A stretch of 64,000 nt of DNA from positions 12,231 through 76,230 of the forward strand of contig DAOTGJ010000004.1 in NCBI GenBank assembly GCA_035447065.1, written 5' to 3'. The DNA comes from Candidatus Krumholzibacteriia bacterium (GTDB lineage Bacteria > Krumholzibacteriota > Krumholzibacteriia > LZORAL124-64-63). Both the position numbers and the translations under genes were made by a program. Below the pieces are notes generated by a model. That model was not told the DNA's origin. It worked only from the letters and a program-made list of their open reading frames with translations, and made no database searches. Positions 3,798-20,884 of the stretch are shown here, piece after piece (position 1 is the stretch's first letter; every line of letters begins with the position of its first letter).

Positions 3798-3897
3798 GGG
3801 GTTCGGCTCCCGTTGCGGTCTCTCGAGGGACGCCCGTGCGGCGGCGTCCGGGGCGGCCCGCCAACAGTAGGCAGGTAGCTGTTAATTTCCAAACATT

Positions 3898-5328
3898 TCA
3901 TGGCGATGGAGGCCCGCCACGGGTCAGGATCCGCGTCACGGCCGCGCGGACCGCCGCCGGATCGGCGCGGCCGTCGACGCGGGCCAGCACCCGCCCCACG
4001 AACCATCCCAGCAGGGCGGCCTTCCCCCCATGGTAAGCGGAGACCTGGGCGGGCGTCTCTGCCAAAACCGCGGCGGCCAGCGCTTCCAGGTCCGCGCCGG
4101 CCACCGCCACGGTCAGGCCGTGGGCGGCAGCCACCGCAAGCGGGTCGCGGGGATCGTCCACCAGCAGGGGCAGCAGGGCGCGGGCCTGGGGCGGGGCCAC
4201 GCGGCCGACGGCCTCCAGCCGCAGAAGGCGGGCCAGGCGCACGGCGCCCGGCACGACGGCGGCGCCGCGTTCGCGGGCCAGGGCCGCCACCGGTCCGGCG
4301 CACCAGCGGGCGGCCGCGCGAGCGTCGCCGGCGTAACGGGCCAGGGCTTCGAAGCGGTCGCAGGCCGCGCGGTCCGCGGTCACGGCGCGCAGCAGCTCGG
4401 GCTCCAGGCCGTGGAGCCGCGCCAGCCGCCGCGCCCGCACGCCGGGCAGCTCCGGCAGCGCGCGTCGGGCCAGCTCCGCGGCGGCGTCCAGGCCGGTCAG
4501 GGGCGGCAGGTCCGGATCTTCCAGGAAGCGGTAGTCGGCGGCGGTCTCCTTGGCGCGCAGGGGTTCGGTGCGGCGGGCCTCGGCGTTCCAGGCGCGGGTC
4601 TCCGGAACGGACGCCAAGCCGTCGGCCAGCCGGGCGTGCAACCGCGCGCGCTCGAACTCCAGGGCCCGGGCCACGCCGCGCGCCGTGTTCAGGTTCTTCA
4701 GCTCCACGCGGGGACCGGGCGCGCCGTCGGGTCCGCGCAGGGAGATGTTGGCGTCGCAGCGCAGGTCGCCGTCCTCCATGCGCGCCTCGCTCACGTCCAG
4801 CCAGCGCAGCAGGCGGCGCAGGGCGCGCAGCACCTGGTACGCCTCCTCCCCCGTGCGCAGCTCCGGCGCGGTGACGATCTCCGCCAGGGGCGCGCCGGCG
4901 CGGTTGAGATCCACGCTCACGCGGCCGTCGTGGACGCTGCGGCTGCGGCCGGCGTCTTCCTCCAGGTGGATCCCCTGCAGGGTCAGGCGACCCGGCGCGA
5001 GGTCGTCGCCGAACTCCAGCAGGCCGCCGCGGGCCAGGGGCCGGGCCTGCTGGGTGATCTGGTAGTTCCGGGGCAGGTCCGGGTAGAGGTACTGCTTGCG
5101 CGCGAAGCTGCTGTCCGGCGCCACCGTGCAGCCCAGGGCCGCGGCCAGCCGCAGGCCCTGGCGCACGGCGGCGGCGTTGGGCGCGGGCAGGGCACCGGGC
5201 AGGCCGGCGCACACGGGGCATACGTGCGTGTTGGGCGCGGCGGCGGGGTCCACCCGGCAGCCGCAGAACAGCTTGGTGCGCGTGGCCAGGCGCACGTGGA
5301 GCTCCAGGCCGATCAGCGCCTCCGCCAC
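3898..5328 (-). CDS. gatB: Asp-tRNA(Asn)/Glu-tRNA(Gln) amidotransferase subunit B
   Basis: The N-terminus IGLELHVRLATRTKLFCGC is the GatB signature, and the C-terminal GatB/YqeY domain is present. Confidence 0.9.
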   Translation of the reverse strand: MAEALIGLELHVRLATRTKLFCGCRVDPAAAPNTHVCPVCAGLPGALPAPNAAAVRQGLRLAAALGCTVAPDSSFARKQYLYPDLPRNYQITQQARPLARGGLLEFGDDLAPGRLTLQGIHLEEDAGRSRSVHDGRVSVDLNRAGAPLAEIVTAPELRTGEEAYQVLRALRRLLRWLDVSEARMEDGDLRCDANISLRGPDGAPGPRVELKNLNTARGVARALEFERARLHARLADGLASVPETRAWNAEARRTEPLRAKETAADYRFLEDPDLPPLTGLDAAAELARRALPELPGVRARRLARLHGLEPELLRAVTADRAACDRFEALARYAGDARAAARWCAGPVAALARERGAAVVPGAVRLARLLRLEAVGRVAPPQARALLPLLVDDPRDPLAVAAAHGLTVAVAGADLEALAAAVLAETPAQVSAYHGGKAALLGWFVGRVLARVDGRADPAAVRAAVTRILTRGGPPSP

Positions 5329-6752
5329 GGCGACTCCTTCCGCCGGGCGTCGAAGTCCGCGCCGCGTTCCAGGGCCGCGCCCAGGGTCAGCAGCGCCCCT
5401 TCGCCGTCGTCGCGGCCGATGAGCTGCGCGCTCAGAGGCAGGCCCGCCGCGGTCAGCGTGGTGGGCACGGTCAAGGCCGGCAGGCCGGCCAGGCTGGCGG
5501 GCACGGTGAAGCGGTCGGCGTCGCGCATGGCCACGGGATCTCCGGTACGCTCGCCGCGGCGGAAGGCCGGGCCCGCGGCGGTGGGCAGCAGCAGGACGTG
5601 ACGGTCGTGGAGGAGGTCGCGCAGCTCGCGGTGGATCAGCGCGCGGGCGCGGGCGGCGCGGCCCGCCCAGCGGTCGGCGTGGCCGGCGCGCAGCACGTGG
5701 GCGGCGGTGAGCAGGCGAAGGCGGACCTCCGCGCCGAAGCCGGCGGTGCGGGCGGCGGCGGCCGCGGCGGCATGATCTCCCCCGAACGCGCGGGGGCCCA
5801 GATGGCCGCCGTCGTATCTGGCCAGGTCGGCGCCGGCCTCGGCGCTCGCCAGGATCGTGTAGGCGGCCAGGGCCAGATCCGTGTCGGGCAGGTCCACCGG
5901 GTCCAGGACCGCGCCGGCGTCGGCCAGGATGGATCGGCAGCGGGCCTGGTCCGCCAGCGTGTCCGCATCGGCCCAGCGCTCCAGACCGCGCACCCAGCCC
6001 ACGCGCAGGCCGCGGCAGACGCGGCGGGTGGCGGCCACGGGGTCAGGCTCGGCCAGGTCGGTGCTCGTGGCGTCGCCGGCGTCGCGGCCGGCCACGTGGG
6101 CCAGCACGGCGGCGGCATCGGCCACCGAGCGCGTCAGCACGCCCACGCGGTCCAGGGAGGTGGCGTGGGGCACCAGGCCGCGGCGCGACACGCGTCCGTA
6201 GCCGGCGATCAGACCCGTCACGCCGCAGCAGTGGGCGGGATGGCGCACGCTGCCGCCCGTGTCGCTGCCCAGGGCGAAGCCCGCAAGGCCCGCCGCCACC
6301 GCCGCCGCGGCGCCGCCGCTGGAGCCGCCGGGCACGTGGTCGGGATGCCAGGGGTTGCGCGTGGCCAGGCCCCAGGCGTGCTCGGTGCTGGAGCCCATGG
6401 CGAACTCGTCCAGGTTCAGGGTGCCCAGGAGCACGGCGCCGGCGGCGCGCAGGCGGGCCACGGCGGCGGCGTCGGCGGGCGGCACCCAGCCGGCGAGCAG
6501 GCGCGACGCGCAGTCGGCGGGCGCGCCCCGGGCCCAGAGGTTGGCCTTGATGCCGTAAGGGATGCCCCACAGGGGCGACGGCCCGGGCGGGCCCGCGGGG
6601 GGCGCGGCCAGTTCCAGCCAGCGATAGCAGCCCAGATCGCCGTCCAGGTCGGCGATGCGCTCGCGGGCCGCCCGCAGGAGGTCCGCCGCGGTGAGTCCGC
6701 CATCGCGCAGGCGCGCGGCCGCCTCCAGCACGTCCAGGTCCGCGACGCTCAC
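5313..6752 (-). CDS. gatA: Glu-tRNA(Gln) amidotransferase subunit A (amidase family)
   Basis: Amidase signature (GGSSGGAAAAVAAG, GSDTGGSVRHPA). It lies between gatC and gatB with a 4-nt overlap with gatC. Confidence 0.9.
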   Translation of the reverse strand: MSVADLDVLEAAARLRDGGLTAADLLRAARERIADLDGDLGCYRWLELAAPPAGPPGPSPLWGIPYGIKANLWARGAPADCASRLLAGWVPPADAAAVARLRAAGAVLLGTLNLDEFAMGSSTEHAWGLATRNPWHPDHVPGGSSGGAAAAVAAGLAGFALGSDTGGSVRHPAHCCGVTGLIAGYGRVSRRGLVPHATSLDRVGVLTRSVADAAAVLAHVAGRDAGDATSTDLAEPDPVAATRRVCRGLRVGWVRGLERWADADTLADQARCRSILADAGAVLDPVDLPDTDLALAAYTILASAEAGADLARYDGGHLGPRAFGGDHAAAAAAARTAGFGAEVRLRLLTAAHVLRAGHADRWAGRAARARALIHRELRDLLHDRHVLLLPTAAGPAFRRGERTGDPVAMRDADRFTVPASLAGLPALTVPTTLTAAGLPLSAQLIGRDDGEGALLTLGAALERGADFDARRKESPWRRR

Positions 6753-7171: not shown

Positions 7172-9121
7172 GTGCGTCTGCTTGGGATCGCCCTGCTGCT
7201 GCTGTCGACGCAAGCCTTGGCGCTGCCGCCGGCGCCGCCGTGCAAGCATGGGCTGAAGGCCCTGGCCGCGGACGACGGCGACGGCGACCGCGGCTTCGAC
7301 GTGCTGGCCTACGATCTGGATCTGAGCCTGGATCCCGCCGCCGCCCGCGTGGGCGGCACGGTGTCCGCATCGATCCGCCTGACCGACGCCGCCCTGGACT
7401 CCGTGCGCCTGGACCTGGTGCCGGAGCTGACCGTGAACGCCCTGACCTGGAACGGCGCGGCGGTCCCCTTCCGCCACGACGGCGAGCGCCTGGCCGTGCC
7501 CGTGCCCGCCGGGACCGCGGCGGCCTGCTCCCTGGCGGTCACCTACGGCGGCCGTCCGCCCCGCCACGGCGAGCTCTTCCTGGGGCTGGTCTTCCGCGAC
7601 CGCGGCACCTCCGCGGCGGATCCGCGCGGGCCCATCGTCTTCAACGTGAGCCAGCCCAGCAGCAGCCGCGCCTGGTGGCCGTGCAAGGACCACCCCGGCG
7701 ACAAGGCCCTGATGACCCTGCGCCTGACCGTGCCGGACACCCTGCGCGCGGTGGCCAACGGATACCAGGTGTCGGACACCGTCCTGGGCGACGGCCGCCG
7801 CACCACCGTCTGGCGCTCCGACTACCCCATGCCGCCGTACCTGGTGGGCGTGGCCGTGTCGGAGTTCGTGGAGACCGAGGAGGAATGCGCGGGCGTGGAC
7901 GGGCCCGTGGAGCTCACCTACCACCTCTGGCCGGAGCACGCCGACGCCGGCGCCGTCTTCTACCAGCCCACCTGCGCCATGCTGCAGTGGCTGGAGGAGC
8001 TGGCCGGCCCCTGGCCCTTCGCGGGCGAGCGCTACGGGCAGATGTCCGTGAAGTTCGGCGGGGCCATGGAGCACCAGACGTCCACCAGCTTCGGCGCGGG
8101 CATGATCGCGGAGGACGGGCGCTTCCGCGGCGTCATCGTGCACGAGCTGGCGCACCAGTGGTTCGGCGACCTGATGACGCCCGCGGAATGGTCGGACATC
8201 TGGCTCAACGAGGGCTTCGCCCGCTACTGCGAGGCCCTGTGGACCGAGCGCACCGAAGGCCGCGCCGCCTACCGGGCGTACCTGGACCTCATCGGGCCCC
8301 AGGGGCATCCGGACCTCTTCACGGCCGAGCGGCCGCTGAACGATCCCTCGCCCATCCTCTCGCTGCTGGTCTACGACAAGGGCGCCTGGGTGCTGCACAT
8401 GCTGCGCGGCGAGCTGGGCGACGCGCGTTTCTTCGAGTTCCTGCGAGACTACGCCGGCAGCACCGGCGGCGCGCCCGGCCACGTGACCGGCGCCGACGTT
8501 GTGGCCGCGGCCTCGCGCGCCGCGGGTCGCGACCTGAGCGGCTGGTTCCGGCCCTGGCTGGAGACCACGGCCGTGCCGGAGCTGGGCTGGAGCTGGCGCG
8601 CGGAGGCGGGCGCCGACGGCCCGCGCGGCGTGCTGCGGCTGGAGCAGCGGCAGGCGGAGCTCTTCGACCTGCGCGTGCCCGTGACCGTGGTGGCCGGCGG
8701 CGACAGCCTGCGCCTGCACGTGCGCCTGGACGGCCCCGCGGCCGAGGTGGACGTGCCCTGGACCGCGGCCCCGGACACGGTGCTGATCGATCCCGACGCG
8801 AGCCTGCTGCGCACCACGGCGGCCCTGCCCCCGCCTGCGCTCACCCTCGCGGCGCCGCACCCCAACCCGTCCGCGGGCGGCGACGTGGAGCTGCGCTACG
8901 TGGTGCGCCGCGCCGGGCCGGTGACCCTGGAGCTGCACGACGCCCGCGGCCGTCGCCTGGCGCGATGGGATCTGGGGGAGCATGCGGCCGCGGACGAGGC
9001 CGCGGCGTGGCACTGGAACGGCCGCGACGCCGAGGGCCGCCGCCTGCCCGCGGGCACCTACTGGTTCGCCCTGAGCGCCGGCGGCGCGCGTGCCGTGGAG
9101 AAGGTGGTGCTGCTGCGCTGA
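7172..9121 (+). CDS. secreted M1-family zinc aminopeptidase (aminopeptidase N-like) with a C-terminal FlgD-Ig/T9SS-type sorting-like domain
   Basis: Signal peptide MRLLGIALLLLSTQALA, GAMEH exopeptidase motif, HELAHQWFGD...WLNEGFA zinc site. The C-terminal ~90 aa (..HPNPSAGGDVELRYVV..LELHDARGRRLARWDLG..WNGRDAEGRRLPAGTYWF..) resemble a FlgD Ig-like or Por secretion tail. GTG start with AAAGGAA RBS. Confidence 0.85.
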   Translation: MRLLGIALLLLSTQALALPPAPPCKHGLKALAADDGDGDRGFDVLAYDLDLSLDPAAARVGGTVSASIRLTDAALDSVRLDLVPELTVNALTWNGAAVPFRHDGERLAVPVPAGTAAACSLAVTYGGRPPRHGELFLGLVFRDRGTSAADPRGPIVFNVSQPSSSRAWWPCKDHPGDKALMTLRLTVPDTLRAVANGYQVSDTVLGDGRRTTVWRSDYPMPPYLVGVAVSEFVETEEECAGVDGPVELTYHLWPEHADAGAVFYQPTCAMLQWLEELAGPWPFAGERYGQMSVKFGGAMEHQTSTSFGAGMIAEDGRFRGVIVHELAHQWFGDLMTPAEWSDIWLNEGFARYCEALWTERTEGRAAYRAYLDLIGPQGHPDLFTAERPLNDPSPILSLLVYDKGAWVLHMLRGELGDARFFEFLRDYAGSTGGAPGHVTGADVVAAASRAAGRDLSGWFRPWLETTAVPELGWSWRAEAGADGPRGVLRLEQRQAELFDLRVPVTVVAGGDSLRLHVRLDGPAAEVDVPWTAAPDTVLIDPDASLLRTTAALPPPALTLAAPHPNPSAGGDVELRYVVRRAGPVTLELHDARGRRLARWDLGEHAAADEAAAWHWNGRDAEGRRLPAGTYWFALSAGGARAVEKVVLLR

Positions 9122-9130
9122 GCGGCGCCG

Positions 9131-11386
9131 TCAGTCCAACGTGCGGAGCTTGGCCAACCGCGCCAGGAAGTGCTTGCGCTCGCCGCCGGGGAAATCCACG
9201 TCGAGCTTGAGGTTGGGGCCGCTGCCCTCCACCCGCGCCACCACGCCCTGCCCCATGGCCGGGTGCAGCACGGTCTGGCCCACGCGGTAGGCCACCTCCT
9301 CCTGGCTCACGTCGGACGCCCAGAGATCCGCCGTGGACTGCGGACGCGGACGCACGGGGGCCGACGGCCGCGGCGCCCGGCGTTCGCCGCCGCGCGACGC
9401 CCCGCCGAACCCGGTCCACGACTCCCCGCCCAGGAAGCTGCCCAGCGTGGGCGCCTGCACCGGATCGCCGCTCATCTCCATCAGCGTGTCCGGGATCTCG
9501 CCCAGGAAGCGCGACGCCAGGCAGGCCTCGCGCTGGCCGAAGCGCCGGCGCATGCGCGCGTGCAGCAGGTAGACGCGCTTCTCCGCGCGGGTGAGCGCCA
9601 CGTAGAACAGGCGGCGCTCCTCCTCCAGGGCCGAGGCGTCCTCCAGGTTGGAGACGTGGGGCATGAGCTCCTCCTCCACGCCGCAGATGGCCACCACCGG
9701 GAACTCCAGGCCCTTGGCCGCGTGCACCGTCATCATGCGCACCACGCCCTGATCGTCCGCGATGGTGTCCGCGTCGGCCACCAGGGCCACCTGCTCCAGG
9801 TACTGGGCCAGGGTGCCGCCGTCGGACTGGTCGTGGAAGGCGTGGGCGCCGTTGACGAGCTCCGCCACGTTCTCCAGGCGGGCGGCGGCGGTCTCGGCGT
9901 CGTCCTGCTCCAGCCAGGCCTCGTAGCCAACGCGGGTCAGGAGCGCCTCCAGCAGGTCCGGCACGCTCATCTCCTCCGCCATGGCGCGCAGCTGCGCCAC
10001 CAGCGCGAAGAACTCGCGGATCTTCTGCATGGCGGCGCCGCCCAGCTCCGTCTCCATCAGCCCGGGCCGGCCGGCCGCCTCGCCCAGGGTCAGCCCCTCG
10101 CGCTCGGCCAGGGCCAGCAGGCGCTGCGCCGACGTGTCGCCGATGCGTCGCTTGGGCACGTTGAGCACCCGCAGGGCCGCCACCGAGTCCGCCGGGTTGT
10201 GCAGGAGCTTGAGGTAGGCCAGCACGTCGCGGATCTCGCGCCGCTCGTAGAAGGCCGTGGAGCCCACCACCTGGTAGGGCACGGCGGCGCGGCGCAGGGC
10301 CTCCTCCAGGGCGCGGCTCTGGGCGTTGGTGCGGTAGAGGATGGTCACGTCGCCGCGCCGGAGGCCCTTGGCCGACTCCTCGCGCACGATGTCCACCACG
10401 CGCGCGGCCTCGTCCTCCTCGTCGCCCACCAGCTCCGCCTGCAGCAGGTCGCCCGCGGCGCCGGCCGTCCACAGGTTCTTGCCCTTGCGCTTGCTGTTGT
10501 GCGCGATGACGGCGTTGGCTGCGTCCAGGATGTTGCCCGTGCTGCGGTAGTTCTGCTCCAGGCGCACCAGGCCCGAGCCGGGGAAGAACTCCTCGAAGTT
10601 GAGCATGTTCTCCACCTGGGCGCCGCGCCAGCTGTAGATGGACTGGTCGTCGTCGCCCACGGCGAACACGTTGCCGTGCACGCTGCTCAGCGCCTTGATG
10701 AGGATGAGCTGCAGCTTGTTGGTGTCCTGGAACTCGTCCACCAGCACGTGGCGGAAGCGCTGGGCGTACTTGGCGCGCACCTCCTCGCTCTGCTCCAGCA
10801 GGTGCACGGTGCGCAGGATGAGGTCGTCGAAATCCAGGGCGTTGTTGGCGCGCAGGGCCTTCTCGTAGGCGGCGTAGGCCTTGGCCGGCGGCTCGTCCCA
10901 GAACTCGGCGTCGGCCAGGGCGGTCTCCGGGTCGATGTCCTCGTTCTTCCAGGCGCTGATGCGGTGGCGCAGCTTGGACGGCGGGTACTGCTTGGGGTCC
11001 GCGCCGGCGTCGGCGGCCACGCGCTTGAGCAGGCGCGTGCTGTCGTCCGTGTCGTAGATGGTGAAGTTGGGGTCGATGCCCAGGGCCGCGCCGTCGCGGC
11101 GCAGGATCTTCACGCCGGTGGCGTGGAAGGTGCCCACCCAGTGGGGCGCGCGGTTCTCCCCCACCAGCGTGTTCACGCGCTCCTTCATCTCGCGCGCGGC
11201 CTTGTTGGTGAAGGTGAAGGCCAGGATCTCCGAGGGCAGCACGCGGCGCTCGCTCAGGAGCCAGGCGATGCGGGTGGTCAGCACGCGGGTCTTGCCGCTG
11301 CCGGCGCCGGCCACCACGAGCTGGGGGCCTTCGGGAGCCTCCACGGCTTCCCGCTGGCGGTCGTTCAGGCGATGCAGTTCGAGCAC
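9131..11386 (-). CDS. pcrA: ATP-dependent DNA helicase PcrA/UvrD family
   Basis: Walker A GAGSGKTRVL, UvrD motifs (TFTNKAAREM, VDEFQDTN, TVHAAKGLEFPVV), 751 aa. Confidence 0.9.
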   Translation of the reverse strand: MLELHRLNDRQREAVEAPEGPQLVVAGAGSGKTRVLTTRIAWLLSERRVLPSEILAFTFTNKAAREMKERVNTLVGENRAPHWVGTFHATGVKILRRDGAALGIDPNFTIYDTDDSTRLLKRVAADAGADPKQYPPSKLRHRISAWKNEDIDPETALADAEFWDEPPAKAYAAYEKALRANNALDFDDLILRTVHLLEQSEEVRAKYAQRFRHVLVDEFQDTNKLQLILIKALSSVHGNVFAVGDDDQSIYSWRGAQVENMLNFEEFFPGSGLVRLEQNYRSTGNILDAANAVIAHNSKRKGKNLWTAGAAGDLLQAELVGDEEDEAARVVDIVREESAKGLRRGDVTILYRTNAQSRALEEALRRAAVPYQVVGSTAFYERREIRDVLAYLKLLHNPADSVAALRVLNVPKRRIGDTSAQRLLALAEREGLTLGEAAGRPGLMETELGGAAMQKIREFFALVAQLRAMAEEMSVPDLLEALLTRVGYEAWLEQDDAETAAARLENVAELVNGAHAFHDQSDGGTLAQYLEQVALVADADTIADDQGVVRMMTVHAAKGLEFPVVAICGVEEELMPHVSNLEDASALEEERRLFYVALTRAEKRVYLLHARMRRRFGQREACLASRFLGEIPDTLMEMSGDPVQAPTLGSFLGGESWTGFGGASRGGERRAPRPSAPVRPRPQSTADLWASDVSQEEVAYRVGQTVLHPAMGQGVVARVEGSGPNLKLDVDFPGGERKHFLARLAKLRTLD

Positions 11387-11411
11387 GGGGTCCTTCCCGG
11401 GGGGCTGGGGA

Positions 11412-14400
11412 TCAGAATTCGGGGCCGATGCTGAAGTGGAAGATGCCTTCCCCCGTGCTGCGCAGATCCGTGGGCCAGGCCCAGTCGAACTTGAGGGGGA
11501 GGAAGCCCAGGCTGGCCCTTATACCAAAGCCGTAGGAGCCCCGCAAGTCCCGCATGCCCCACTCGCCGGCGGCGTCGTGGCCCAGGAAGGCCACGGTCTC
11601 GCCGTCGGCCCAGGCGGTGCCGGCGTCGAAGAACACGGTGGCGCCGATGGGCCCCAGCCCCCAGCGCCCCGGCCAGCCGAAGATCAGCGCGTCCACCAGG
11701 GGCAGACGGTACTCCAGGTTCAGCATGACCAGGCGGCTGCCGGCCAGGTGCGGGTCCTGCTGGTAGTCGTAGAAGTCGTAGCCGCGCAGGGTGAAGGGGC
11801 CGCCCAGCACGAAGCCGCGCGGGTCGCGGCCCAGGCTCGCGGCGCCCAGCAGGCGCACGGCGAAGGTGTTCCGGCTCCAGGGCATGCCGTAGCGGCGCCA
11901 GTCCATCAGCACGGTGCGGCGGTCCAGGCTGTCGCCGCCGATGCCGATGGCCGGCGCGAAGTGCAGCTGCAGGCGGCTGCCGGTCACCGGACCGTGGTAG
12001 CCGTAGAAGGCGCTGTCGTGGCTGTACTCCAGCGTGGGCTGCAGCAGGTGGTGCTTCACGCTGCCGTCCTCCACCAGGTAGTAGCCCGACGGGTCCAGGG
12101 CGTACTGGGTGCGGATGGACGTGAGCGCCTGCAGGCCGATGCTCACGCGGCGGAAGGTGCTGAACGGGTAGGAGGCGTCGCAGACCAGACCGTAGTTGCG
12201 CTCGCTGAAGAAGGTGTCGTCGGGCAGCACCTCGCCCACGGTGGTGAACGCGGAGTTGTAGTAGTTCTTGAAGTGGAAGAGCCCCACGCCCAGGTCCCAG
12301 CGGTGCTTGAGGTAGGCGTAGCTGGCGGCCAGGTCGCTGTTCTCCAGCGACCCGTACACGTTGACCAGGAAGGACAGGCGCCGGTCGCCGAGCTGATCGC
12401 TGAAGTTGAGCACGTTGGCCATGCCCAGGCCGGCCTGCGGGCTGAAGAACACGGCGCCGCCGTCCAGGGCGCCGCTGGTGTCCAGGTGGAAGCGCGGGCT
12501 GTAGGGTTCCACATCGCCCACGGCGTCGGCGTCGCGCAGCGGAGGAGGGCCCTGCTCCGCCGTGACCAGCTCAGGCGGGTCGAAGGCCACGTCGCCGAGG
12601 GGCGCGCCGGCCGGCGTGCGGCGGGACCAGGCGCGGTAGCCGTCCACGGCGTGCAGGTCGTAGCCGCCGGCGAGGAAGGCCGTGAAGACCAGGCGGTCCG
12701 CGGCGCGGCTGTAGCTGGGCTGGGTGGCGGCGCCGGCCACGTTGGTGATCAGGCGCATGCGCGGCACGTCCGGGTCCGACACGTCCAGGGCCGCCAGGTT
12801 GGGCGTGCCGCCGCCCGCGTGGACCACGCAGAGCTCGGCGGCGTCGATCCACACCGGGTCGCGCCACTCCCCCTGCTCCGGGCGCAGGGCGCGGCGCGCG
12901 CCCGTGTCCGGGTCCAGCAGCACCAGGTCGCGGTCCTGGGCGTGGCCCACGCGCAGGGCCTCGTCGCCGTCCGCGAAACGGGCCCAGGCCAGGCGGCGCC
13001 CGCCGTCCGGCGTCTCCTCGAACTCGTACTCCACCGCGGCGCGGGGGTTGTGCACGAAGGCCAGGGTGCGGCCGTCGGGGCTCCAGGCGGGGGTCTCCTC
13101 GTCGCCGGCGTCGTCGGTGAGGCGGCGGCGGGCGGCGCCGTCGGCCAGGGGCGTCCAGCCGGGCGGGGGCGCGTCGCCGGCCTCCAGGTCCACCAGATGG
13201 AGGTCCGTGCGGCCCAGGGTCACGCCCACCAGGGCGATGGTGCGGCCGTCGGGGCTCCAGGCCGGCGCGCGGGCGCTGTCCAGGCCCAGGGGGATGGAGC
13301 GTGTCACGGCGCCGTCGTCCACGCGGATCGTGTGCAGGGTCTCGCGGGAGCCGCTGAGGGCCACGAAGGCGATCTCCGCGCCGTCGGGCGACCAGCTGAT
13401 GCCGCTGCGGAAGGAGTGGAAGCTCTCGAAGCGGTCCGCCCGGTGGCCGCGCGCCAGCCGGCGCACGCGCGCGGGGTCCAGCACGTCCAGCACGTAGAGC
13501 GACACCAGCCCGTCGCGGTCCGAGTAGAAGGCCGCGCGCAGACCGTCGGGCGAGAGGGCGGCGCGCTGGTTGAAGCCGTTGCCCTCCTCCTGATGGTCGG
13601 TCAGGCGGCGGGCGATGGCCTCCGGCTCCTCCAGGGTGCCGAAGGTGGGCCAGAACCAGCGCCGCGCCTCCAGCTGGAACTCGTCGTCCAGGTCCTCCAT
13701 GCGCAGGCCCAGCGTGCCCTCCAGGGTGCGATCCATGTTGCGGGTGCGCGCCAGCAGGCGCCACATCTCCACCAGCGTCTCCTCGCCGTAGCGCTCGGAG
13801 ATCATGCGCATGGCGGCCTGGCCCTCCTTGTAGACCAGGTAGCCGCCCACACGCGAGAGGGGCCAGAGGTAGTCGCGGGTGGCGGCGTCGCGCAGGACCA
13901 TCTCGGCGTTCTCGTCCCAGCCCGACGCGTACCACTCCGCCACGCCCTCGGCGAACCACAGCGGGATGCGGAAGAAAGGCGAGCGTGAGGCGCCGGCGCG
14001 GGAGCTGCCGAAGGCCATGTCGAACATGAAGACGTGCACCAGCTCGTGGCGCACCACGTGCACGAAGTCCGCGTGGTTGCCCTCGTAGGGCAGCACCATG
14101 CGGTTGCGCGAGGGCTCGGTGAAGCCGCCGGTGCCCTCGCCGAAGAGCTCGTCGGCGATGTTGGTCTGGGCGAACTCGCCGTGGCTGGCGTAGAGGATGA
14201 ACGGCACGCGCTTCTCGAGGTCGTGCCCCAGGCGCAGGGCGTACTCGCGGTAGGTGCGCTCGGCGATGATGGCCGCGCGCGCGGCCAGCTCGTCCGCGCC
14301 GTCGGCGTAGGTGATCTCGAAGTGGGGCGTGGTCAGGGTGCGCCAGTCGCGGTCGAAGGTCTGCACCTTGTTGCGGCCGAAGGCCTGGGCCCCGCCCGCG

Positions 14401-14450
14401 GTGCACAGCAGGACGAGCAGCAGCAGCGCGGCGCGGCGCGGAATGGTCAT
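11412..14450 (-). CDS. Omp85-family outer membrane beta-barrel protein with an N-terminal HExxH metallopeptidase-like domain and a TolB-like PD40 beta-propeller (unusual fusion)
   Basis: Signal peptide, then VRHELVHVF...WFAEGVAEWYA (HExxH plus downstream E, gluzincin-like). Multiple WSPDG PD40 repeats follow. The C-terminal barrel has the Omp85 L6 motif LRGY and ends ...GIFHFSIGPEF (aromatic terminus), paralogous to the adjacent Omp85 C-terminus. Confidence 0.7.
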   Translation of the reverse strand: MTIPRRAALLLLVLLCTAGGAQAFGRNKVQTFDRDWRTLTTPHFEITYADGADELAARAAIIAERTYREYALRLGHDLEKRVPFILYASHGEFAQTNIADELFGEGTGGFTEPSRNRMVLPYEGNHADFVHVVRHELVHVFMFDMAFGSSRAGASRSPFFRIPLWFAEGVAEWYASGWDENAEMVLRDAATRDYLWPLSRVGGYLVYKEGQAAMRMISERYGEETLVEMWRLLARTRNMDRTLEGTLGLRMEDLDDEFQLEARRWFWPTFGTLEEPEAIARRLTDHQEEGNGFNQRAALSPDGLRAAFYSDRDGLVSLYVLDVLDPARVRRLARGHRADRFESFHSFRSGISWSPDGAEIAFVALSGSRETLHTIRVDDGAVTRSIPLGLDSARAPAWSPDGRTIALVGVTLGRTDLHLVDLEAGDAPPPGWTPLADGAARRRLTDDAGDEETPAWSPDGRTLAFVHNPRAAVEYEFEETPDGGRRLAWARFADGDEALRVGHAQDRDLVLLDPDTGARRALRPEQGEWRDPVWIDAAELCVVHAGGGTPNLAALDVSDPDVPRMRLITNVAGAATQPSYSRAADRLVFTAFLAGGYDLHAVDGYRAWSRRTPAGAPLGDVAFDPPELVTAEQGPPPLRDADAVGDVEPYSPRFHLDTSGALDGGAVFFSPQAGLGMANVLNFSDQLGDRRLSFLVNVYGSLENSDLAASYAYLKHRWDLGVGLFHFKNYYNSAFTTVGEVLPDDTFFSERNYGLVCDASYPFSTFRRVSIGLQALTSIRTQYALDPSGYYLVEDGSVKHHLLQPTLEYSHDSAFYGYHGPVTGSRLQLHFAPAIGIGGDSLDRRTVLMDWRRYGMPWSRNTFAVRLLGAASLGRDPRGFVLGGPFTLRGYDFYDYQQDPHLAGSRLVMLNLEYRLPLVDALIFGWPGRWGLGPIGATVFFDAGTAWADGETVAFLGHDAAGEWGMRDLRGSYGFGIRASLGFLPLKFDWAWPTDLRSTGEGIFHFSIGPEF

Positions 14451-14465
14451 GCCCGTCCTCCCTTC

Positions 14466-17400
14466 CTAGTACTCGAAGCGGTACTTCAGGTCCACGCTGT
14501 ACGTGGTGTTGCCCAGGGCCTCGTCCAGGCGCCGGTTGATCTCGGACTGCAGCACCAGGTGGTCCGAGATCTGGTACTCCACCAGCACCTCGCGGTCCTG
14601 GTCCGTCACGGCCTGGGCGAAGCGCACGTAGAGGTCCCGCCCGATGTACTTGCCCACCCCCACCAGGGTCTGCATGGTGCCGTCGGCGCGCTCGCGCCCG
14701 CCGATGATGTCGAAGGTGTCCACCACGTCGAGCTGCTGCGCCACCTCGCGCTCCAGAAGGTTGAAGCCGGCGGCCACGGTGCCGCGCCGGATCTCGCCCA
14801 CGGTGGGCGAGTCGGCCGCGTGGGGCGACAGCCCCAGCAGCATGCGCTCGATGCTCTGGCGCGGATAGCCGCTCTCGCTCAGGAACGTCACCGTGGGCCC
14901 CGTGGCCGGTCCGGTCAAGGTGATCCAGATGCGCTCCAGGCGCCGGTTCACGTTCTCCGCGCCCTGGGGCGCCGGCAGCCGCACCTGCGTCTCCGCGGAG
15001 ATGTCCAGCTCCGGCACCGGACCGCGTCCGCTCAGGAACGTGGCCGTGCCCGCCGTCACGCGGAAGTCGTTGTTGAACACCGGCAGATGGCCCTGGTCGA
15101 TGGCCAGCTCGCCGCGCACGTCCATGCCGCCCTCGTCGCGGGTCAGGCGCACGTCGCCGCCCAGGTCCAGCTCCATCTGGTTGTTCTGCACGCTCACCGT
15201 GCGCGGCGGGGCGTGGATGGCCAGGTCCGCCAGCCAGTCCGGCGCCACCGTGCCGATGCGCGGGTCCACCACGCCGGCCTGCTCCGAGAAGTCGCCCGTG
15301 TAGCGGGCCTGGATCACCTCCAGGTCGCCGGTGAACATGGGCACGATGAGGCTGTCCGGCCCCACCTTCACCCCGGTGAGCTTCAGGGCGTCGCTGCGCA
15401 CCAGGGCGCGCACGTCCGGGATGGACGACACCAGGAAGCGGTCCGCCTCCAGGTCCACCTCGAAGGTCTCCAGCACCAGGCCGCGGAAGGTCAGCGTGCC
15501 GTCGCCTCGGACCGTGCCGCGCATGCCCTCGCGCCCGCGGATGTCGCGCAGGGTCAGCACGTCGCCCTGCCACACGCCGTCGGCGTTGATGTCCGCGTAC
15601 ACCTCGTTGAGGCGGCGGATCACCATGGAGCCGTCGCGCACGCGCAGGCTGCCGGAATAGTACGGATGATCGGCGCGTCCGGAAACCACCAGGTCCAGGC
15701 CGCCGGAGCCGCCCGCGGAGACGAAGGCGTTGGTGGCCTCGGCCAGGGGCGCCAGGTCCGAACCCTCCGGAATGGTCAGGCTCATGTAGAGCGGGCCGTC
15801 CAGGGGCGAGACCGGCTCCGAGTGGAAGTCCATCTCCAGGGGGATCTCGATGCGGCCGCTCAGATCCAGCGTCCCCTTGCGTCCCTGCAGGTCCGACAGG
15901 GTGAGCTGGCCGGGCTCGTAGGCCACGCCGCCCTGCAGGCGGTCCAGGTGCAGCCAGTGCACGTGGAAGGGTTCGCTGGTCAGCCCGCCCTCGATGCGCG
16001 GCGCCAGGGTGGTGCCGCCGATCTCCACGCTGCCCCGGAAGCGGCCGGCGATGCGGTCCAGCGCGGGGATCTCGAACTGGTCGATGAAGGCCCAGTCGCC
16101 GTCCAGCACGTCCAGGTGCAGGTCCAGGGCGGCGCCGCGCCACCACTCCTCCACCAGGTCCGTGCCCGGGTGCGACACGGCGCCCGACGCTCGCAGGCGG
16201 CCGTGGTCGCTGGCCAGTTCCACCTGGTGCAGGTCCAGCACGCCGTGGCTGAAGTCCAGGTCCACGGTCACCGTGTCCAGACGCGCCAGGGGGAAGTCGG
16301 CGTCGGTCAGGCGCGCGGTGAGCGCGGCCAGGGGCGCGTCGGGGCTGCCGCCCAGGCCGCAGCGGGCGGAGACGCGGCCGTTGAGCACGGGCTCGGCCAG
16401 GAACGGGTTGATGAGCTCCAGGTCCAGGGTGGCCAGGTCCACCTCGCCGCTCAGGGTGCCGGCGGGCTCGTCCCAGTCGATGGCCGCCGCCAGACGGCCC
16501 TGGGCGCTGCTCAGCTCCGCGGGCCGCAGGCGGAACACGCCGGGGCCGGCCTCCAGGCGCACCGTGTCCCCCACCGCCCACGTGGCGCCCTCCAGGTCCA
16601 GCGCCAGGTCCGCCACGCGCATGGCGGCCAGGCCGTCGCGGAAGGCGGCGTCGCCGTGGAAGGCCAGCACCGTGTCGCCGCGCTCGGTGCGGAAGCGCGA
16701 GAGCTCGGCGCGGCGGGCGTCCACCATGCCGGCCAGGCCGAAACGCCCGAAGGGCACGCCGCCGGCCCGCAGGCCGTCGCCCTCCGCCTCCAGCCACACG
16801 CCGGGGTCGCGCAGGGCGTCGGTCACGGTGATCTCCACGCGGGTCTCGGCGGCCTCCAGGCGCTCCAAGCCGGCGTCGTGGAGCAGCACGTTGCCGGCGA
16901 AGTCGAAGACCGGGTCCACGCCGCGCACCTCCCCCGACGCCCGCAGGCGCCCGTGCAGCGGCGGGGCGGGCCACTCCTCGGGCAGCCGCGAGAGATCCGA
17001 CGAGAGCACGTCCAGCCGGCCGCGGAAGTTGCCGTCCAGATCCGCGCGACCGTCCAGGCGGGCCTTGGCCGCGCCGTAGATCAGGTCCAGGCTGTGGAAG
17101 GTCACGCCGGCGGCGTCGCCGGCCACCAGCACGTGCAGGGAGTCGAAGGGCACGTCGGCCACGTGGCCGTCGCGCAGCCAGCCGCGCACCAGGGTGGACT
17201 CCTGGGCCTCGCGGCGCCAGATCTCCACCTCGCCCCAGCCGTCGGTGGGCGGCAGCTCCACGTCCGGCACCAGGCCGCGGGACAGGTCCACGTCGGCCAC
17301 GCTGCCGGTGACACGGAAGATCACGTCCTCGGTGTCGGTCACGTCGAAGCGGCCGCGGCCGCTGACCAGGGCGCCGTTGAGGCGGCCGGCCAGGGAGTGG

Positions 17401-18308
17401 AAGTCCAGGAAGCGGGGCGACAGGGTGGCGCGGCCGGTGAAGTCCCGGAACTCGTAGCCCTCCAGCTCGCCGGTGAAGTCCACGTCGAAGTCCAGGGTGT
17501 CGCCGTGGGCGTGCAGGTCCATGCGCACGTCGCCCCGGGCCTGGAAGCCCAGGGTCATGTCGATGAGCTCCTCCACCTCCACCGCGTCCACGCGCTGGGC
17601 CTCCACGCGCAGGTCCAGCGAGGCGTCGGCGCGGCGCACGCCGGAGACCAGGACGGTGCTGTCGTTGAGGCGGCCGCTCAGCTGATCCACGTGCAGGTCG
17701 CCGTCGCGCAGGGCCACGGCGCCGCGCAGGTCGGAGAGCCGGGCGTCGCGGGTGGTCCAGTCCAGGGCGGCGTCCACGGCGGAGATGCGGATCTCGTCGC
17801 CCAGGCGCAGGGAGCCCCGCCAGTCCAGGCCGGTGACCTCCTGCTCCAGGCGGCCGTCGGCGTCGGCCAGGGACAGGGCGCCGTGCAGCACCTCCAGGTC
17901 GTGGATCACCAGGCCGGGCAGGCCGCCGCCGCGGGCCTCGCCGTCGCCCGGCTCGCCGCGCACGCCGCGCACCTCCGGCCCCACCATCAGCACGCGCTTC
18001 AGCTCGTAGGGCTGGCGCAGCAGGGCGTGCAGGTCGTAGGCCAGCGACAGGGTGTCCACCCCCACCACGGTGGTGCCGCCGCCGGCGCCGGGCAGGGTGA
18101 GGGTCACGTCGTAGAGGGTCACGCCGCGCAGCGGGTTGCCGGCGTAGTCGGCGAAGCGCACGCTGCCGTGGGCGCCCAGCAGGTGGCGCGTGGCCAGGCG
18201 CGAGAGCCACGGCGCGGTGCTGGCGGGGTGCGTGGCCAGCCAGGCCACCACGCCCGTGAAGAGCACGACCGCCACCAGCAGCGTCCAGCGTGTCGCCCGC
18301 ACCAGCAT
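14466..18308 (-). CDS. tamB: TamB-like translocation and assembly module protein (AsmA-like/DUF490)
   Basis: 1280 aa with an N-terminal TM anchor and long repetitive beta-rich periplasmic region. The C-terminal DUF490-like end ...LVLQSEINRRLDEALGNTTYSVDLKYRFEY. It lies immediately downstream of the Omp85 gene with a 1-nt overlap. Confidence 0.75.
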   Translation of the reverse strand: MLVRATRWTLLVAVVLFTGVVAWLATHPASTAPWLSRLATRHLLGAHGSVRFADYAGNPLRGVTLYDVTLTLPGAGGGTTVVGVDTLSLAYDLHALLRQPYELKRVLMVGPEVRGVRGEPGDGEARGGGLPGLVIHDLEVLHGALSLADADGRLEQEVTGLDWRGSLRLGDEIRISAVDAALDWTTRDARLSDLRGAVALRDGDLHVDQLSGRLNDSTVLVSGVRRADASLDLRVEAQRVDAVEVEELIDMTLGFQARGDVRMDLHAHGDTLDFDVDFTGELEGYEFRDFTGRATLSPRFLDFHSLAGRLNGALVSGRGRFDVTDTEDVIFRVTGSVADVDLSRGLVPDVELPPTDGWGEVEIWRREAQESTLVRGWLRDGHVADVPFDSLHVLVAGDAAGVTFHSLDLIYGAAKARLDGRADLDGNFRGRLDVLSSDLSRLPEEWPAPPLHGRLRASGEVRGVDPVFDFAGNVLLHDAGLERLEAAETRVEITVTDALRDPGVWLEAEGDGLRAGGVPFGRFGLAGMVDARRAELSRFRTERGDTVLAFHGDAAFRDGLAAMRVADLALDLEGATWAVGDTVRLEAGPGVFRLRPAELSSAQGRLAAAIDWDEPAGTLSGEVDLATLDLELINPFLAEPVLNGRVSARCGLGGSPDAPLAALTARLTDADFPLARLDTVTVDLDFSHGVLDLHQVELASDHGRLRASGAVSHPGTDLVEEWWRGAALDLHLDVLDGDWAFIDQFEIPALDRIAGRFRGSVEIGGTTLAPRIEGGLTSEPFHVHWLHLDRLQGGVAYEPGQLTLSDLQGRKGTLDLSGRIEIPLEMDFHSEPVSPLDGPLYMSLTIPEGSDLAPLAEATNAFVSAGGSGGLDLVVSGRADHPYYSGSLRVRDGSMVIRRLNEVYADINADGVWQGDVLTLRDIRGREGMRGTVRGDGTLTFRGLVLETFEVDLEADRFLVSSIPDVRALVRSDALKLTGVKVGPDSLIVPMFTGDLEVIQARYTGDFSEQAGVVDPRIGTVAPDWLADLAIHAPPRTVSVQNNQMELDLGGDVRLTRDEGGMDVRGELAIDQGHLPVFNNDFRVTAGTATFLSGRGPVPELDISAETQVRLPAPQGAENVNRRLERIWITLTGPATGPTVTFLSESGYPRQSIERMLLGLSPHAADSPTVGEIRRGTVAAGFNLLEREVAQQLDVVDTFDIIGGRERADGTMQTLVGVGKYIGRDLYVRFAQAVTDQDREVLVEYQISDHLVLQSEINRRLDEALGNTTYSVDLKYRFEY

Positions 18309-20407
18309 CAGAACGGATACCCCAGCGAGAAGTGATAGACCACGCGGCTGTCGGCGTCGGTCTCCGACGTGCGCGCCCGCTTCAGCGGGAAGCCCACGTC
18401 CACGCGCACCGGTCCCACGGGCGTGTCCACGCGCACGCCCGTGCCCAGGCTCCAGCGGTAGTCGGTGAGCTTGGTGGAGGCGTCGTCCTCAGGATCGCCC
18501 GGGTCCGAGGTGAGCCGGAAGTCCTCCAGGCTCACGTCGCGCAGGCGCTCCCACACGTTGCCGCCGTCCAGGAAGAACACGCCGCCCACGTTCCACGCGC
18601 TGAGCACGGGCACGGGGAAGCGCCACTCCACGTTGCTCAGCAGCAGGTAGTTGCCGCCGCGGGCGGGCTGGTCCGGCAGGGGCACGTCGCTGGAGAGCTG
18701 CAGGCTGTCCAGCAGGGCCGGATCCGTGATCTGGGGCCCCAGGCTGCGCTCCTCGTAGCCGCGCACCGACGACACGCCGCCGGCGAAGTAGCGCTCCTGG
18801 TACGGCACCCCGTCGGCGCCGCGGTCCAGCGACCCGGCGTAGGGCCGCACCACGCCCGCGCTCACCCGCACGGCCAGCACGCCGCCCAGGGGGGTGCCCG
18901 TGTAGCCGTGCCAGCTCGAGGACAGCTTCCAGAAGGAGTTGTCGCCGCCCAGGGGGCCGCCGGCCACCTCGGCCAGGCCGGTGCGCAGGGAGCCGCGGCG
19001 GGGACGCACCGGGTCGTCGCGCTCCTCGTCGTACACGTTCCAGCTCAACGAGCGGGTGGAGGCGGCGGTGAGCCCGGCGGCGCGCCAGCGGTTCTGCATC
19101 TCCTCGATGGCGTCGGGATGGATCTCCGGCTCCACGCGCTCCACGCCGAAGGCCAGCGTGTTCACGGTGTGGTCGCCGGGCCGGAAGCGCGTGCCCGTGC
19201 GGAAGCCGCGCGTGCGCAGGTTCAGGCCCGACTCGCCGCGGGTCTCCTTCTCGACGTAGAAGTTGGTGTCCAGGCCGAAGCGGCCCAGCAGGTCCGGGTA
19301 GTTGTGGTTCAGCTCGTAGTGGTAGTTCAGCTCCGGGTCCGCCGCGCCGTCGCTCAGGCGCTGCACGTCCTCGTAGTTGAGGGCGTTGCGCGCGCGCAGG
19401 CCCAGCTTCTGACCCGTGCCGAAGAGGTTGTTGTGGCCCCAGCCGGCCAGCACGCGGATGCGCTCGCGGCTGCCCACGCCGAAACCGAACTCGTAGTAGG
19501 CGGGCTTGCGCTCCACCACCACCACCTCCAGGTCCGCCAGGCCCAGCAGGCTGTCCATGCGCGTGGGGCGGAAGGAGACGTCGCGGAACAGGGACGTCTC
19601 CACCAGGCGGTCGCGGGAGTCCTCCACCGCGCTCCAGCGGAAGAAGGCCCCGGGCTTGACCTGCAGGCGCTTGCGGATCAGCTCCGGCCGCGTGCGCTCC
19701 GCGCCCACGATGGTCACGTCGCCCACCACGTAGCGCGGGCCGGGACGCACGTGGTAGGCCAGCGCGGCGCCCAGGTGCAGGGAGTCGGGCGGCGCGGCGG
19801 GGCGCAGCTCCGGATCGATGGTCACGCCCAGGTGCCCGCGCTCCCAGAGGCCGGTGCGCAGGCGGTAGAGGTCCGGGCCCAGGTCGTTCAGGTCGCCGGG
19901 CGCGGGCACGCCGGGGCGGTAGCGGAGCTGCTCGCGCAGGCCCAGGTCCACCAGACCCTCGGCGCCCGGAAAGGACACCTCCACCAGGTCCGTGCGCGGA
20001 CCCTCGGTCACGCCGATGCGGATCACGTCGCCGCGGCCCTCGGGATCCTCCGTCACCGTGAGCAGCTCCACGCGCACGTCGTGGTAGCCGCGCTGGCGGT
20101 ACCAGCGCGCCAGCACGCCCAGCTCCACCTCCAGCAGATGGGGCTGGTAGCGGGCGGTGCGGTCCGACAGGCCCAGGAGCATGAGGGGATGGAAGCGGCG
20201 GGGCTCGCGGATCTTGAGCAGGCTCCTGAGCTCGCCGTCGTCGAAGGCCCGGTTGCCCTCGATCAGGATGCGGAAGACCTGGTGCTGCTCCAGGCCGAAA
20301 TCCAGCTCGCTCACCGCGGCGGCGCGGCCGACGCCCAGCAGGACGAGGCCGCACAGGAGCAGAAGCGTGCGGCTCACGCGGCCGCTAGCGTGCCGGGGGA
20401 AACTCAT
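18308..20407 (-). CDS. Omp85-family outer membrane protein assembly factor (BamA/TamA-like, POTRA plus barrel)
   Basis: Signal peptide, POTRA-like repeats, barrel with VRGY L6 motif, ending ...VYHFSLGYPF. It sits in the position occupied by bamA downstream of rseP in proteobacteria. Confidence 0.8.
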   Translation of the reverse strand: MSFPRHASGRVSRTLLLLCGLVLLGVGRAAAVSELDFGLEQHQVFRILIEGNRAFDDGELRSLLKIREPRRFHPLMLLGLSDRTARYQPHLLEVELGVLARWYRQRGYHDVRVELLTVTEDPEGRGDVIRIGVTEGPRTDLVEVSFPGAEGLVDLGLREQLRYRPGVPAPGDLNDLGPDLYRLRTGLWERGHLGVTIDPELRPAAPPDSLHLGAALAYHVRPGPRYVVGDVTIVGAERTRPELIRKRLQVKPGAFFRWSAVEDSRDRLVETSLFRDVSFRPTRMDSLLGLADLEVVVVERKPAYYEFGFGVGSRERIRVLAGWGHNNLFGTGQKLGLRARNALNYEDVQRLSDGAADPELNYHYELNHNYPDLLGRFGLDTNFYVEKETRGESGLNLRTRGFRTGTRFRPGDHTVNTLAFGVERVEPEIHPDAIEEMQNRWRAAGLTAASTRSLSWNVYDEERDDPVRPRRGSLRTGLAEVAGGPLGGDNSFWKLSSSWHGYTGTPLGGVLAVRVSAGVVRPYAGSLDRGADGVPYQERYFAGGVSSVRGYEERSLGPQITDPALLDSLQLSSDVPLPDQPARGGNYLLLSNVEWRFPVPVLSAWNVGGVFFLDGGNVWERLRDVSLEDFRLTSDPGDPEDDASTKLTDYRWSLGTGVRVDTPVGPVRVDVGFPLKRARTSETDADSRVVYHFSLGYPF

Positions 20408-20476
20408 CTTGCTCCGCGCCCCGATTCATCCCATGCTCCCGTGCGTCGACCCGCGAGGTCCGTCCCGGAGGTCATC

Positions 20477-20884
20477 ATGCCGCGTCGCGTCCTGCCGCTC
20501 GTCTGCCTCTGCGCGCTGCTCCTGCCGCTGGCGTCCTGCCGCGAGGAGAACGCGCCCCTGGGCGTGTCCGACCTCACTCCGGCCGAGCTCGAATACGTCA
20601 CCCGTTTCGTCCAGCTCGAACGGGCCCGGGCCGTCTCCCTGCGGGACCGTCCCGCCGGCGAGGCCCTGCTGGATTCCATGGCCGCGGCCTGGGGCGACTC
20701 CGCCCTGGCCCGCGCCGAGGCCGCCCTCTCGCCGGACACCGATCGTCTGGCCGCCTTCCACGACCTGCTGTCCCGCCTGCTCGAGGCCGAGGAGGACAGC
20801 CTCCTGGAGAACCCGTCGCCGGAACGCCTGACCGCGCCCCTACCGGCGCCCGCCACGGACGATCCGCCGCCGCCGCCCTCCTAG
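20477..20884 (+). CDS. small predicted lipoprotein, function unknown
   Basis: This is the 3' part of track ORF 18290..20884. An internal ATG at 20477 gives MPRRVLPLVCLCALLLPLASC (lipobox LASC), then 110 aa of helical, acidic sequence. The rest of that long ORF is antisense to the Omp85 gene. Confidence 0.45.
   Translation: MPRRVLPLVCLCALLLPLASCREENAPLGVSDLTPAELEYVTRFVQLERARAVSLRDRPAGEALLDSMAAAWGDSALARAEAALSPDTDRLAAFHDLLSRLLEAEEDSLLENPSPERLTAPLPAPATDDPPPPPS

Follow-up and report, generated by a model that had tools for sequence, protein, structure and literature searches.

A WD40-like Omp85 protein with a predicted gluzincin peptidase domain, encoded beside tamB in a Candidatus Krumholzibacteriia bacterium

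The sequence considered here is a window of 64,000 nucleotides from a Candidatus Krumholzibacteriia bacterium (assembly GCA_035447065.1, contig DAOTGJ010000004.1, positions 12,231 to 76,230 of the forward strand), and nucleotide positions are those of this window. Its minus strand carries a gene for a protein of 1012 amino acids in which a Sec signal peptide, a gluzincin metallopeptidase domain, a six-bladed PD40 propeller, a coil linker free of POTRA domains and a 16-strand Omp85 barrel follow each other in this order (Table 1). By its identical architecture and structural templates, the protein is a new member of the known WD40-like subfamily of Omp85 proteins; we tentatively propose that it acts as a periplasmic zinc peptidase anchored in the outer membrane, with a role in envelope housekeeping or quality control. 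The gene is a single intact open reading frame (ORF) of 1012 codons, from an ATG start to a stop codon at 11412-11414, and its guanine-cytosine (GC) content at the three codon positions (0.70/0.50/0.97) has the pattern of the surrounding real genes. The ribosome-binding site falls inside the gap that follows the stop codon TAG (14466-14468) of the upstream tamB gene; an earlier note on this DNA had given this gap as 15 nucleotides, on the same strand, and direct reading of the sequence agrees. The motifs quoted in that note are likewise all present (VRHELVHVF at residues 133-141, WFAEGVAEWYA at 165-175, LRGY at 888-891 and the C-terminal HFSIGPEF). A 100% identical protein is found in public databases under the name 'BamA/TamA family outer membrane protein [Candidatus Krumholzibacteria bacterium]'.

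Table 1. Features of the gene, of the encoded protein and of the adjoining genes; fractions refer to the sets of 119 and 106 sequences described in the text
Feature	Residues	Position in the window	Strand	Basis or remark
Whole gene, WD40-like/peptidase Omp85 protein, 1012 amino acids	1-1012	11412..14450	-	ORF list and translation
Ribosome-binding site GGGAGG, 6 nucleotides before the ATG		14457..14462	-	Read from the sequence
Sec signal peptide (MTIPRRAALLLLVLLCTAGGAQA)	1-23	14382..14450	-	Translation; low pLDDT over 1-23
Gluzincin (clan MA) metallopeptidase domain	~36-290	13581..14345	-	
EGTGGFTEP segment, edge strand upstream of HExxH	105-113	14112..14138	-	Model strand 110-112
HELVH zinc-binding/catalytic motif	135-139	14034..14048	-	Helix 126-147; invariant in 119/119 and 106/106
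WFAEGVAE helix	165-172	13935..13958	-	E168, G169 and E172 invariant
VYKEGQ	206-211	13818..13835	-	Y207 106/106, G210 105/106
Six-bladed TolB-like PD40 beta-propeller	~293-603	12642..13574	-	Pfam PD40 and AF2 model
Linker, mostly coil, poorly conserved	~604-666	12453..12641	-	DSSP of the model
Omp85-type 16-strand beta-barrel, beta-signal HFSIGPEF at its end	~667-1012	11415..12452	-	Pfam, Foldseek and model
Loop-6 LRGY motif	888-891	11778..11789	-	R889 104/106, G890 102/106
FFDAG, Omp85 (F/G)xDxG motif	940-944	11619..11633	-	D942 103/106, G944 94/106
UvrD/PcrA helicase gene, downstream		9131-11386	-	After a 25-nucleotide gap, no terminator-like site between
TamB-like protein, upstream gene, 1280 amino acids		14466..18308	-	Pfam TamB E 2e-36
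POTRA-Omp85 in the bamA position, 699 amino acids		18308..20407	-	Pfam Omp85 E 2.6e-46, POTRA E 1e-13

The AlphaFold2 (AF2) model of the protein was built on 69 homologues and is confident, with a mean predicted local distance difference test (pLDDT) of 85.7 and a predicted template modelling score (pTM) of 0.83. The signal peptide (residues 1-23) is disordered in it. An AxA pattern suggests the cleavage site of the signal peptide, and the putative mature N-terminus, FGRNKVQ, is conserved (G25, N27, K28 and Q30, each at least 90%). Further on, the model contains an alpha/beta domain at about residues 36-290, with the HExxH motif on helix 126-147 and the Glu of WFAEG on helix 164-176. HExxH, WxxEG and VYxxG are, in M1 enzymes, the zinc, third-ligand and catalytic-Tyr motifs, respectively. 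By comparison with them, E168, the counterpart of the Glu in the M1 motif WLNEGFA, probably serves as third ligand of the zinc, and Y207 is probably the Tyr that stabilises the transition state, by analogy with the M1 motif VYxKG. Upstream of HExxH, the EGTGGFTEP segment has E105, F110 and E112 invariant in 119 homologues, while G109 and E112 are each kept in 104 of the 106 sequences of a more diverse set; its G-G-F-(S/T)-E core resembles the GxMEN motif of M1 enzymes, a putative equivalence drawn without an alignment.

The window also encodes an M1 peptidase (7172-9121, plus strand), which lies about 2.3 kb from the gene on the opposite strand and consists of Peptidase_M1_N and Peptidase_M1 domains with a C-terminal FlgD Ig-like domain. 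When a profile of the peptidase domain is compared with this enzyme by hhalign (E 3e-5), HELVH is paired with HELAH, PLWFAEGVAEW with DIWLNEGFARY and VYKEGQ with VYDKGA. The Pfam scan of the protein gives no match to the M1 family PF01433; a PF13485 match is precomputed on many homologues. In a fold search with the peptidase domain, the highest score is that of lugdulysin (M30; 16.6), followed by collagenases (M9; 16.4-13.4), by the M1 enzymes ERAP1, APN, PSA, LTA4H and F3 (15.4-13), by M61 aminopeptidases (11.6 and 9.6) and by thermolysin (M4; 9.5). The thermolysin-like fold, together with the invariance of HExxH and of the downstream Glu in homologues, bears out the HExxH...E zinc-peptidase-like module of the earlier note.

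More than 200 independent full-length homologues, at 29-88% identity, have the same layout, and one homologue search returned over 100 full-length proteins of the same architecture down to 32% identity. All of 119 homologues keep H135, E136, H139, E168 and E172. The peptidase domain was also searched against 1.84 billion cluster representatives (50% identity level), of which 552 match at E <=1e-30; the best matches are mostly proteins of 900-1130 amino acids with the domain at residues ~25-300. A diverse alignment of 106 sequences, the query plus 105 of these representatives, full-length and 29-42% identical to it, was used, and in it H135, E136, H139, E168, G169, E172, Y207 and R117 are present in 106/106. 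Positions conserved to at least 95% number 22 in the peptidase domain, 20 in the barrel and one in the propeller; conservation is thus highest in the peptidase domain. The HExxH and Glu residues, for which conservation among homologues had been named as a check, hence come out invariant in both sets (119/119 and 106/106). The N-terminal domain has the full series of M1-type catalytic motifs, in invariant form, and is therefore more probably an active enzyme than a scaffold. A frameshift that joined two genes and an assembly artefact were also considered; both are ruled out, since the same single ORF of ~1000 amino acids recurs in hundreds of independent assemblies.

One genome per species was scanned with two peptide patterns, which found a relative in 520 genomes, and the 80 best loci were studied further. 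They belong to Krumholzibacteriota, Latescibacterota, Eisenbacteria, Zixibacteria, Gemmatimonadota and Ignavibacteria, and HExxH...WxxEG is kept in all 80. A second homologue search, started from a locus labelled Ignavibacteria, returned only proteins of uncultured bacteria, from metagenome-assembled genomes (MAGs). Many MAG records with close homologues (55-68% identity; L002, L003, L008, L009 and others) are labelled 'uncultured Fibrobacteraceae'; their nearest named relatives are Krumholzibacteriota and Latescibacterota, and the labels look coarse or outdated.

The C-terminal part of the protein is an Omp85/BamA-type barrel, as had been recognised earlier, although its length is ~346 residues (667-1012) and not ~370. 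Pfam Omp85 (PF01103) matches residues 714-1012 with E 1.5e-16, Foldseek finds the BamA barrels 6QGW, 7NRE and others at ~1e-9 with a target template modelling (TM) score of ~0.6, and 16 strands can be counted in the DSSP output of the AF2 model. The (F/G)xDxG motif pairs with loop 6 in BamA, and the barrel signatures, RG(Y/F), FxDxG and a C-terminal aromatic residue, are kept across the diverse alignment, where the last residue is F or Y in 98/106 sequences. The product of the POTRA-Omp85 gene two genes upstream does end in HFSLGYPF; the earlier description of the two barrels as clearly paralogous, however, is too strong, as they share 24% identity over 128 residues (E 2e-6) and are superfamily homologues rather than close paralogues. 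A recent duplication of the neighbouring barrel was thereby ruled out. The BamA model TIGR03303 matches the protein over the barrel only, at 33.9 bits against a cut-off of 297.15, and the TamA model NF047950 over the last 54 residues only, at 16 bits against 625; the five POTRA domains of the former and the three of the latter are absent.

Indeed, no Pfam POTRA match occurs in the whole protein at E up to 1, and no beta-alpha-alpha-beta-beta unit is seen in the AF2 model from residue 24 to residue 666. The reading of the N-terminus as devoid of POTRA repeats therefore holds on both counts, and the protein is placed among the Omp85 subfamilies without POTRA; a degenerate POTRA array had been a candidate for this region and is ruled out by the same two results. 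The linker next to the barrel has pLDDT values that fall to 46-52 around residues 661-680 and a mean column conservation of 0.18. The propeller is matched by Pfam PD40 over three stretches (E 5e-19) and includes three WSPDG motifs and one LSPDG; it had been credited with four or more blades, and the 24 strands of the AF2 model, in six groups of four, put the number at six. Its top Foldseek matches in the PDB are the TolB structures 2W8B, 1CRZ and 2IVZ (E 5e-12 to 1e-10).

A propeller joined to a BamA-like barrel invites an explanation in which the protein is an insertase-like Omp85, with the propeller as a scaffold in place of BamB and the POTRA domains and the peptidase as a secondary or merely binding module. 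The 'BamA-BamB fusion' idea of Heinz & Lithgow (PMC4104836) points this way, as do the retention of the loop-6 and FxDxG motifs and the presence of a propeller, the domain type of BamB and TolB. Nevertheless, such a function is very improbable: the catalytic residues are invariant and the peptidase is better conserved than any other part, whereas the propeller has a single position at or above 95%; moreover, the propeller is six-bladed and TolB-like, not of the eight-bladed BamB type, and a POTRA-bearing Omp85 is already encoded two genes upstream.

On the minus strand the gene order is rpsB, pyrH, uppS, dxr, rseP, the 699-residue POTRA-Omp85, tamB, the gene under study and the UvrD/PcrA helicase gene. 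The ORFs of the POTRA-Omp85 and of tamB share one base, 18308, the last of the former and the first of the latter. The POTRA-Omp85 scores 234 bits on the BamA model TIGR03303, against the cut-off of 297, and it is read as occupying the bamA position because rpsB, pyrH, uppS, dxr and rseP precede it (18308-28076), which are the classical surroundings of bamA; it is more likely to be BamA-type than a TamA in the proteobacterial style. Together with tamB it would form a bamA-tamB arrangement resembling those reported outside Proteobacteria. The gene does follow directly on the Omp85-tamB pair described earlier, but the first member of this pair is better described as an Omp85 in the bamA position, with tamB after it. 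A promoter and terminator scan of 9000-23500 found no promoter and one terminator-like site, which is on the non-coding strand; none was found within the cluster on the coding strand. Elsewhere in the window, at 3794-6042, several long overlapping ORFs with ~78% GC occupy both strands; one of them, of 475 residues (3794-5221, minus strand), has no Pfam match, and gene calls in this segment are uncertain.

Among the 72 loci with enough DNA, a TamB-like gene is the immediate upstream neighbour, with the same orientation, in 62, a count made of 60 scored loci plus two (L007 and L029) with over-extended stop-to-stop ORFs. A POTRA-Omp85 precedes tamB in 47/49 loci, rseP is upstream in 47/52 and uvrD downstream in 46/60. 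Whether homologues are always adjacent to tamB had been raised as a check; the linkage is widespread but not universal, with 10/72 exceptions. The context is consistently one of cell-envelope biogenesis and housekeeping.

This linkage suggests an explanation in which the protein is a third subunit of a BamA-TamB machine, its barrel capturing nascent or stalled beta-barrel substrates at the seam or docking the C-terminus of TamB, while the tethered peptidase would trim or destroy what has been captured; this corresponds to the 'substrate-capture variant' proposed earlier. The 15-nucleotide spacing to tamB, the recurrence of tamB and of the POTRA-Omp85 at the counts given above, and the functional Omp85 motifs kept in the barrel would all agree with it. 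We consider it unlikely: the linkage is lost in Zixibacteria, in Ignavibacteria and at one Gemmatimonadota locus, where murA or unrelated genes are upstream, and adjacency by itself is weak evidence, since the whole block, uvrD included, is syntenic. That uvrD is retained downstream indicates that the genes of the block are passed on together whatever their functions, and a neighbouring tamB is no more than moderate evidence that the two genes are functionally coupled. For Krumholzibacteriota, Latescibacterota and Eisenbacteria in particular, it is similarly unlikely that a POTRA-less Omp85 is the third part, specialised for this task, of an envelope machine made with BamA and TamB; if true, it would be a covalently fused counterpart to the machinery for beta-barrel assembly (BAM) plus BepA, in which the barrel engages stalled beta-barrel intermediates or the C-terminus of TamB and the tethered gluzincin-propeller unit proteolyses them.

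The ten loci without tamB upstream are mostly from Zixibacteria and Ignavibacteria, with murA in its place. At four loci labelled Zixibacteria or Ignavibacteria, the next gene upstream of the homologue, in the same orientation, is assigned by Pfam to the EPSP-synthase family (L072, 1361-2734; L074, 8405-9694; L077, 8172-9494; L080, 1173-2477), and the three that were scanned with the NCBIfam murA model TIGR01072 (L072, L074 and L077) score 504-557 bits. At the Gemmatimonadota-labelled locus L062, the upstream segment 1471-5841 (plus strand) encodes a 1457-residue guanylate-cyclase/AAA_16/TPR protein, and an M3 oligopeptidase and a NAD-dependent epimerase are also found, with no tamB. The murA neighbours in Zixibacteria and Ignavibacteria, and the fact that TolB structures, including TolB-Pal complexes, are the best matches of the propeller, could be taken to indicate a tether similar to Tol-Pal, with the propeller binding a Pal- or OmpA-type protein so as to link the outer membrane to the wall and the peptidase acting on wall-linked proteins. 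This is very unlikely, because the TolB model TIGR02800 gives 69 bits, over the propeller blades only, against a cut-off of 343.15, the TolA-binding N-terminal domain of TolB is missing and the propeller surface is poorly conserved; gluzincins of the M1, M9 or M30 type, moreover, are not known as peptidoglycan hydrolases.

The proposal that we prefer, still tentatively, is stated in terms of the peptidase. The Sec signal peptide would deliver the protein to the periplasm and, as the first strand of an Omp85 barrel starts on the periplasmic side, the N-terminal 640 residues would be kept there, tethered under the membrane; it is from Sec export together with this rule of entry from the periplasm that the topology is predicted. 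The tethered part would be a catalytically competent zinc gluzincin, carrying HExxH, WxxEG and VYxxG and packed beside the six-bladed TolB-like propeller. As propellers do in other peptidases of this build, the latter most likely binds or gates the peptide substrates, and would probably restrict or present them. The enzyme would probably cut unfolded or stalled envelope proteins or peptides near the outer membrane, a task like the one that BepA performs at the BAM complex, and would be co-expressed with the bamA-position Omp85 and tamB. We infer zinc binding, activity, the class of substrate, the periplasmic topology and whatever physical contact there may be with BamA or TamB. The envelope gene context suggests, by analogy with BepA, turnover or quality control of envelope proteins. 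That an Omp85 barrel can keep an enzyme domain in the periplasm has an experimental precedent in PlpD (PMC11116518), and an HExxH protease associated with BAM has one in BepA (PMC13655028).

The same enzyme could instead have a nutritional task, as an outer-membrane-anchored aminopeptidase, periplasmic or at the surface, that degrades peptides, whether imported or external; the barrel would then be no more than an anchor, or an exporter similar to type V systems. Exopeptidase chemistry is suggested by the M1-like motifs, the GxMEN-like segment among them, and the propeller-peptidases DPP-IV and tricorn process oligopeptides; the protein has a weak Pfam DPPIV_N match, tricorn-type propeller families are precomputed on homologues, and the other M1 peptidase of the window, at 7172-9121, is of the secreted type. 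We regard this as decidedly unlikely, since the context is envelope housekeeping and not transport of peptides or amino acids, the POTRA domain used by type Vb and Vd export is lacking, and the enzyme domain of PlpD, long thought to be exported, is experimentally periplasmic (PMC11116518).

Some results weigh against the quality-control peptidase itself. The Pfam Peptidase_MA_2 match (E 4e-4, 20.6 bits) falls under its gathering score of 32.4, and PDB chains searched with the peptidase domain, by sequence as well as by profile, gave nothing at E <=10, so the domain would belong to a remote gluzincin lineage. The closest folds mix endopeptidases (M30, M9) and M1 aminopeptidases that are about equally good, so that cleavage may be of the endo- or of the exopeptidase kind. 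Adjacency to tamB, absent in 10/72 loci, may be inherited gene order, as uvrD is nearly as conserved (46/60). Finally, the source DNA is a metagenome-assembled genome.

The earlier note, which knew of no characterised Omp85 member with this architecture, implied that it was new; it was, however, catalogued in 2014, when Heinz & Lithgow (Front Microbiol 5:370, PMC4104836) sorted the bacterial part of the Omp85/TpsB superfamily into ten subfamilies. Among these, the one named 'WD40-like' combines PF07676 repeats with PF01103 and has no POTRA. Its members come from bacteria of the FCB group among others, and Table S3 of that paper lists proteins from Caldithrix, Rhodothermus, Chloroherpeton and others with their best templates: the barrel is matched by BamA/TamA, the propeller by TolB (2IVZ, 2W8B) and the N-terminus by aminopeptidases, namely the tricorn factor F3 (1Z5H), 4KXD and 4FGM, the last from the aminopeptidase N family. 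Only the propeller is discussed there, as the 'BamA-BamB fusion' idea, and the catalytic motifs and the linkage to tamB are not analysed (PMC4104836). Papers of 2024 name the WD40-like subfamily and call it uncharacterised. A full-text literature search found no experimental work on Omp85 proteins with a PD40, WD40, TolB-like or aminopeptidase-propeller architecture, nor on Peptidase_MA_2 alone, and papers on TAM evolution and on TamL make no mention of such a gene beside tamB. The WD40-like proteins are among the few Omp85 branches still experimentally uncharacterised, yet they are abundant (520 species genomes; 552 representatives). What the present analysis adds to the 2014 entry is that the N-terminal domain has all the catalytic motifs of the M1 type in invariant form, that no other domain of the protein is under stronger constraint, and that there is a conserved block of rseP, bamA-like gene, tamB, the gene under study and uvrD in three candidate phyla. 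The addition is modest and reveals no new kind of system; its relevance is to envelope quality control outside Proteobacteria.

Compared with known systems, the peptidase domain shares with M1, M9 and M30 gluzincins the thermolysin-like catalytic fold, HExxH and the downstream Glu, and with M1 enzymes also the WxxEG and VYxxG motifs; it differs from the latter in lacking both the beta-domain at their N-terminus and the helical domain at their C-terminus. Read from the sequence, the spacing between the second His and the Glu ligand is 28 residues, and in M1 enzymes it is 18. TolB has a similar six-bladed PD40 propeller and provides the best Foldseek matches for it; nevertheless, with no TolB N-terminal domain and a score far under the cut-off, the protein is not a TolB orthologue. 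With BamA and TamA it has in common the 16-strand barrel, the RG(Y/F) of loop 6, FxDxG, the C-terminal aromatic residue and the position beside tamB, while POTRA domains are missing and scores are far under the family cut-offs. PlpD and the other patatin-like Omp85 proteins (PMC11116518) likewise have an enzyme domain N-terminal to the barrel, but in PlpD this is a lipase followed by one POTRA, and here a metallopeptidase and a propeller without POTRA; the type Vd layout of passenger, POTRA and 16-strand barrel is accordingly not found, neither Pfam nor the model giving a POTRA. BepA (PMC13655028) is a periplasmic M48 HExxH zinc protease acting at the BAM complex; it may be a functional analogue, as a periplasmic HExxH protease at an outer-membrane assembly machinery, and differs in being an M48 enzyme with TPR repeats, soluble or peripheral and not fused to a barrel. 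Finally, the protein, whose host is Candidatus Krumholzibacteria, is matched to the WD40-like members H1XQ58, D0MEQ5, B3QRX6 and others by architecture and templates, not by their sequences: it has the propeller before the barrel, an aminopeptidase-like region ahead of the propeller, no POTRA and the same structural templates.

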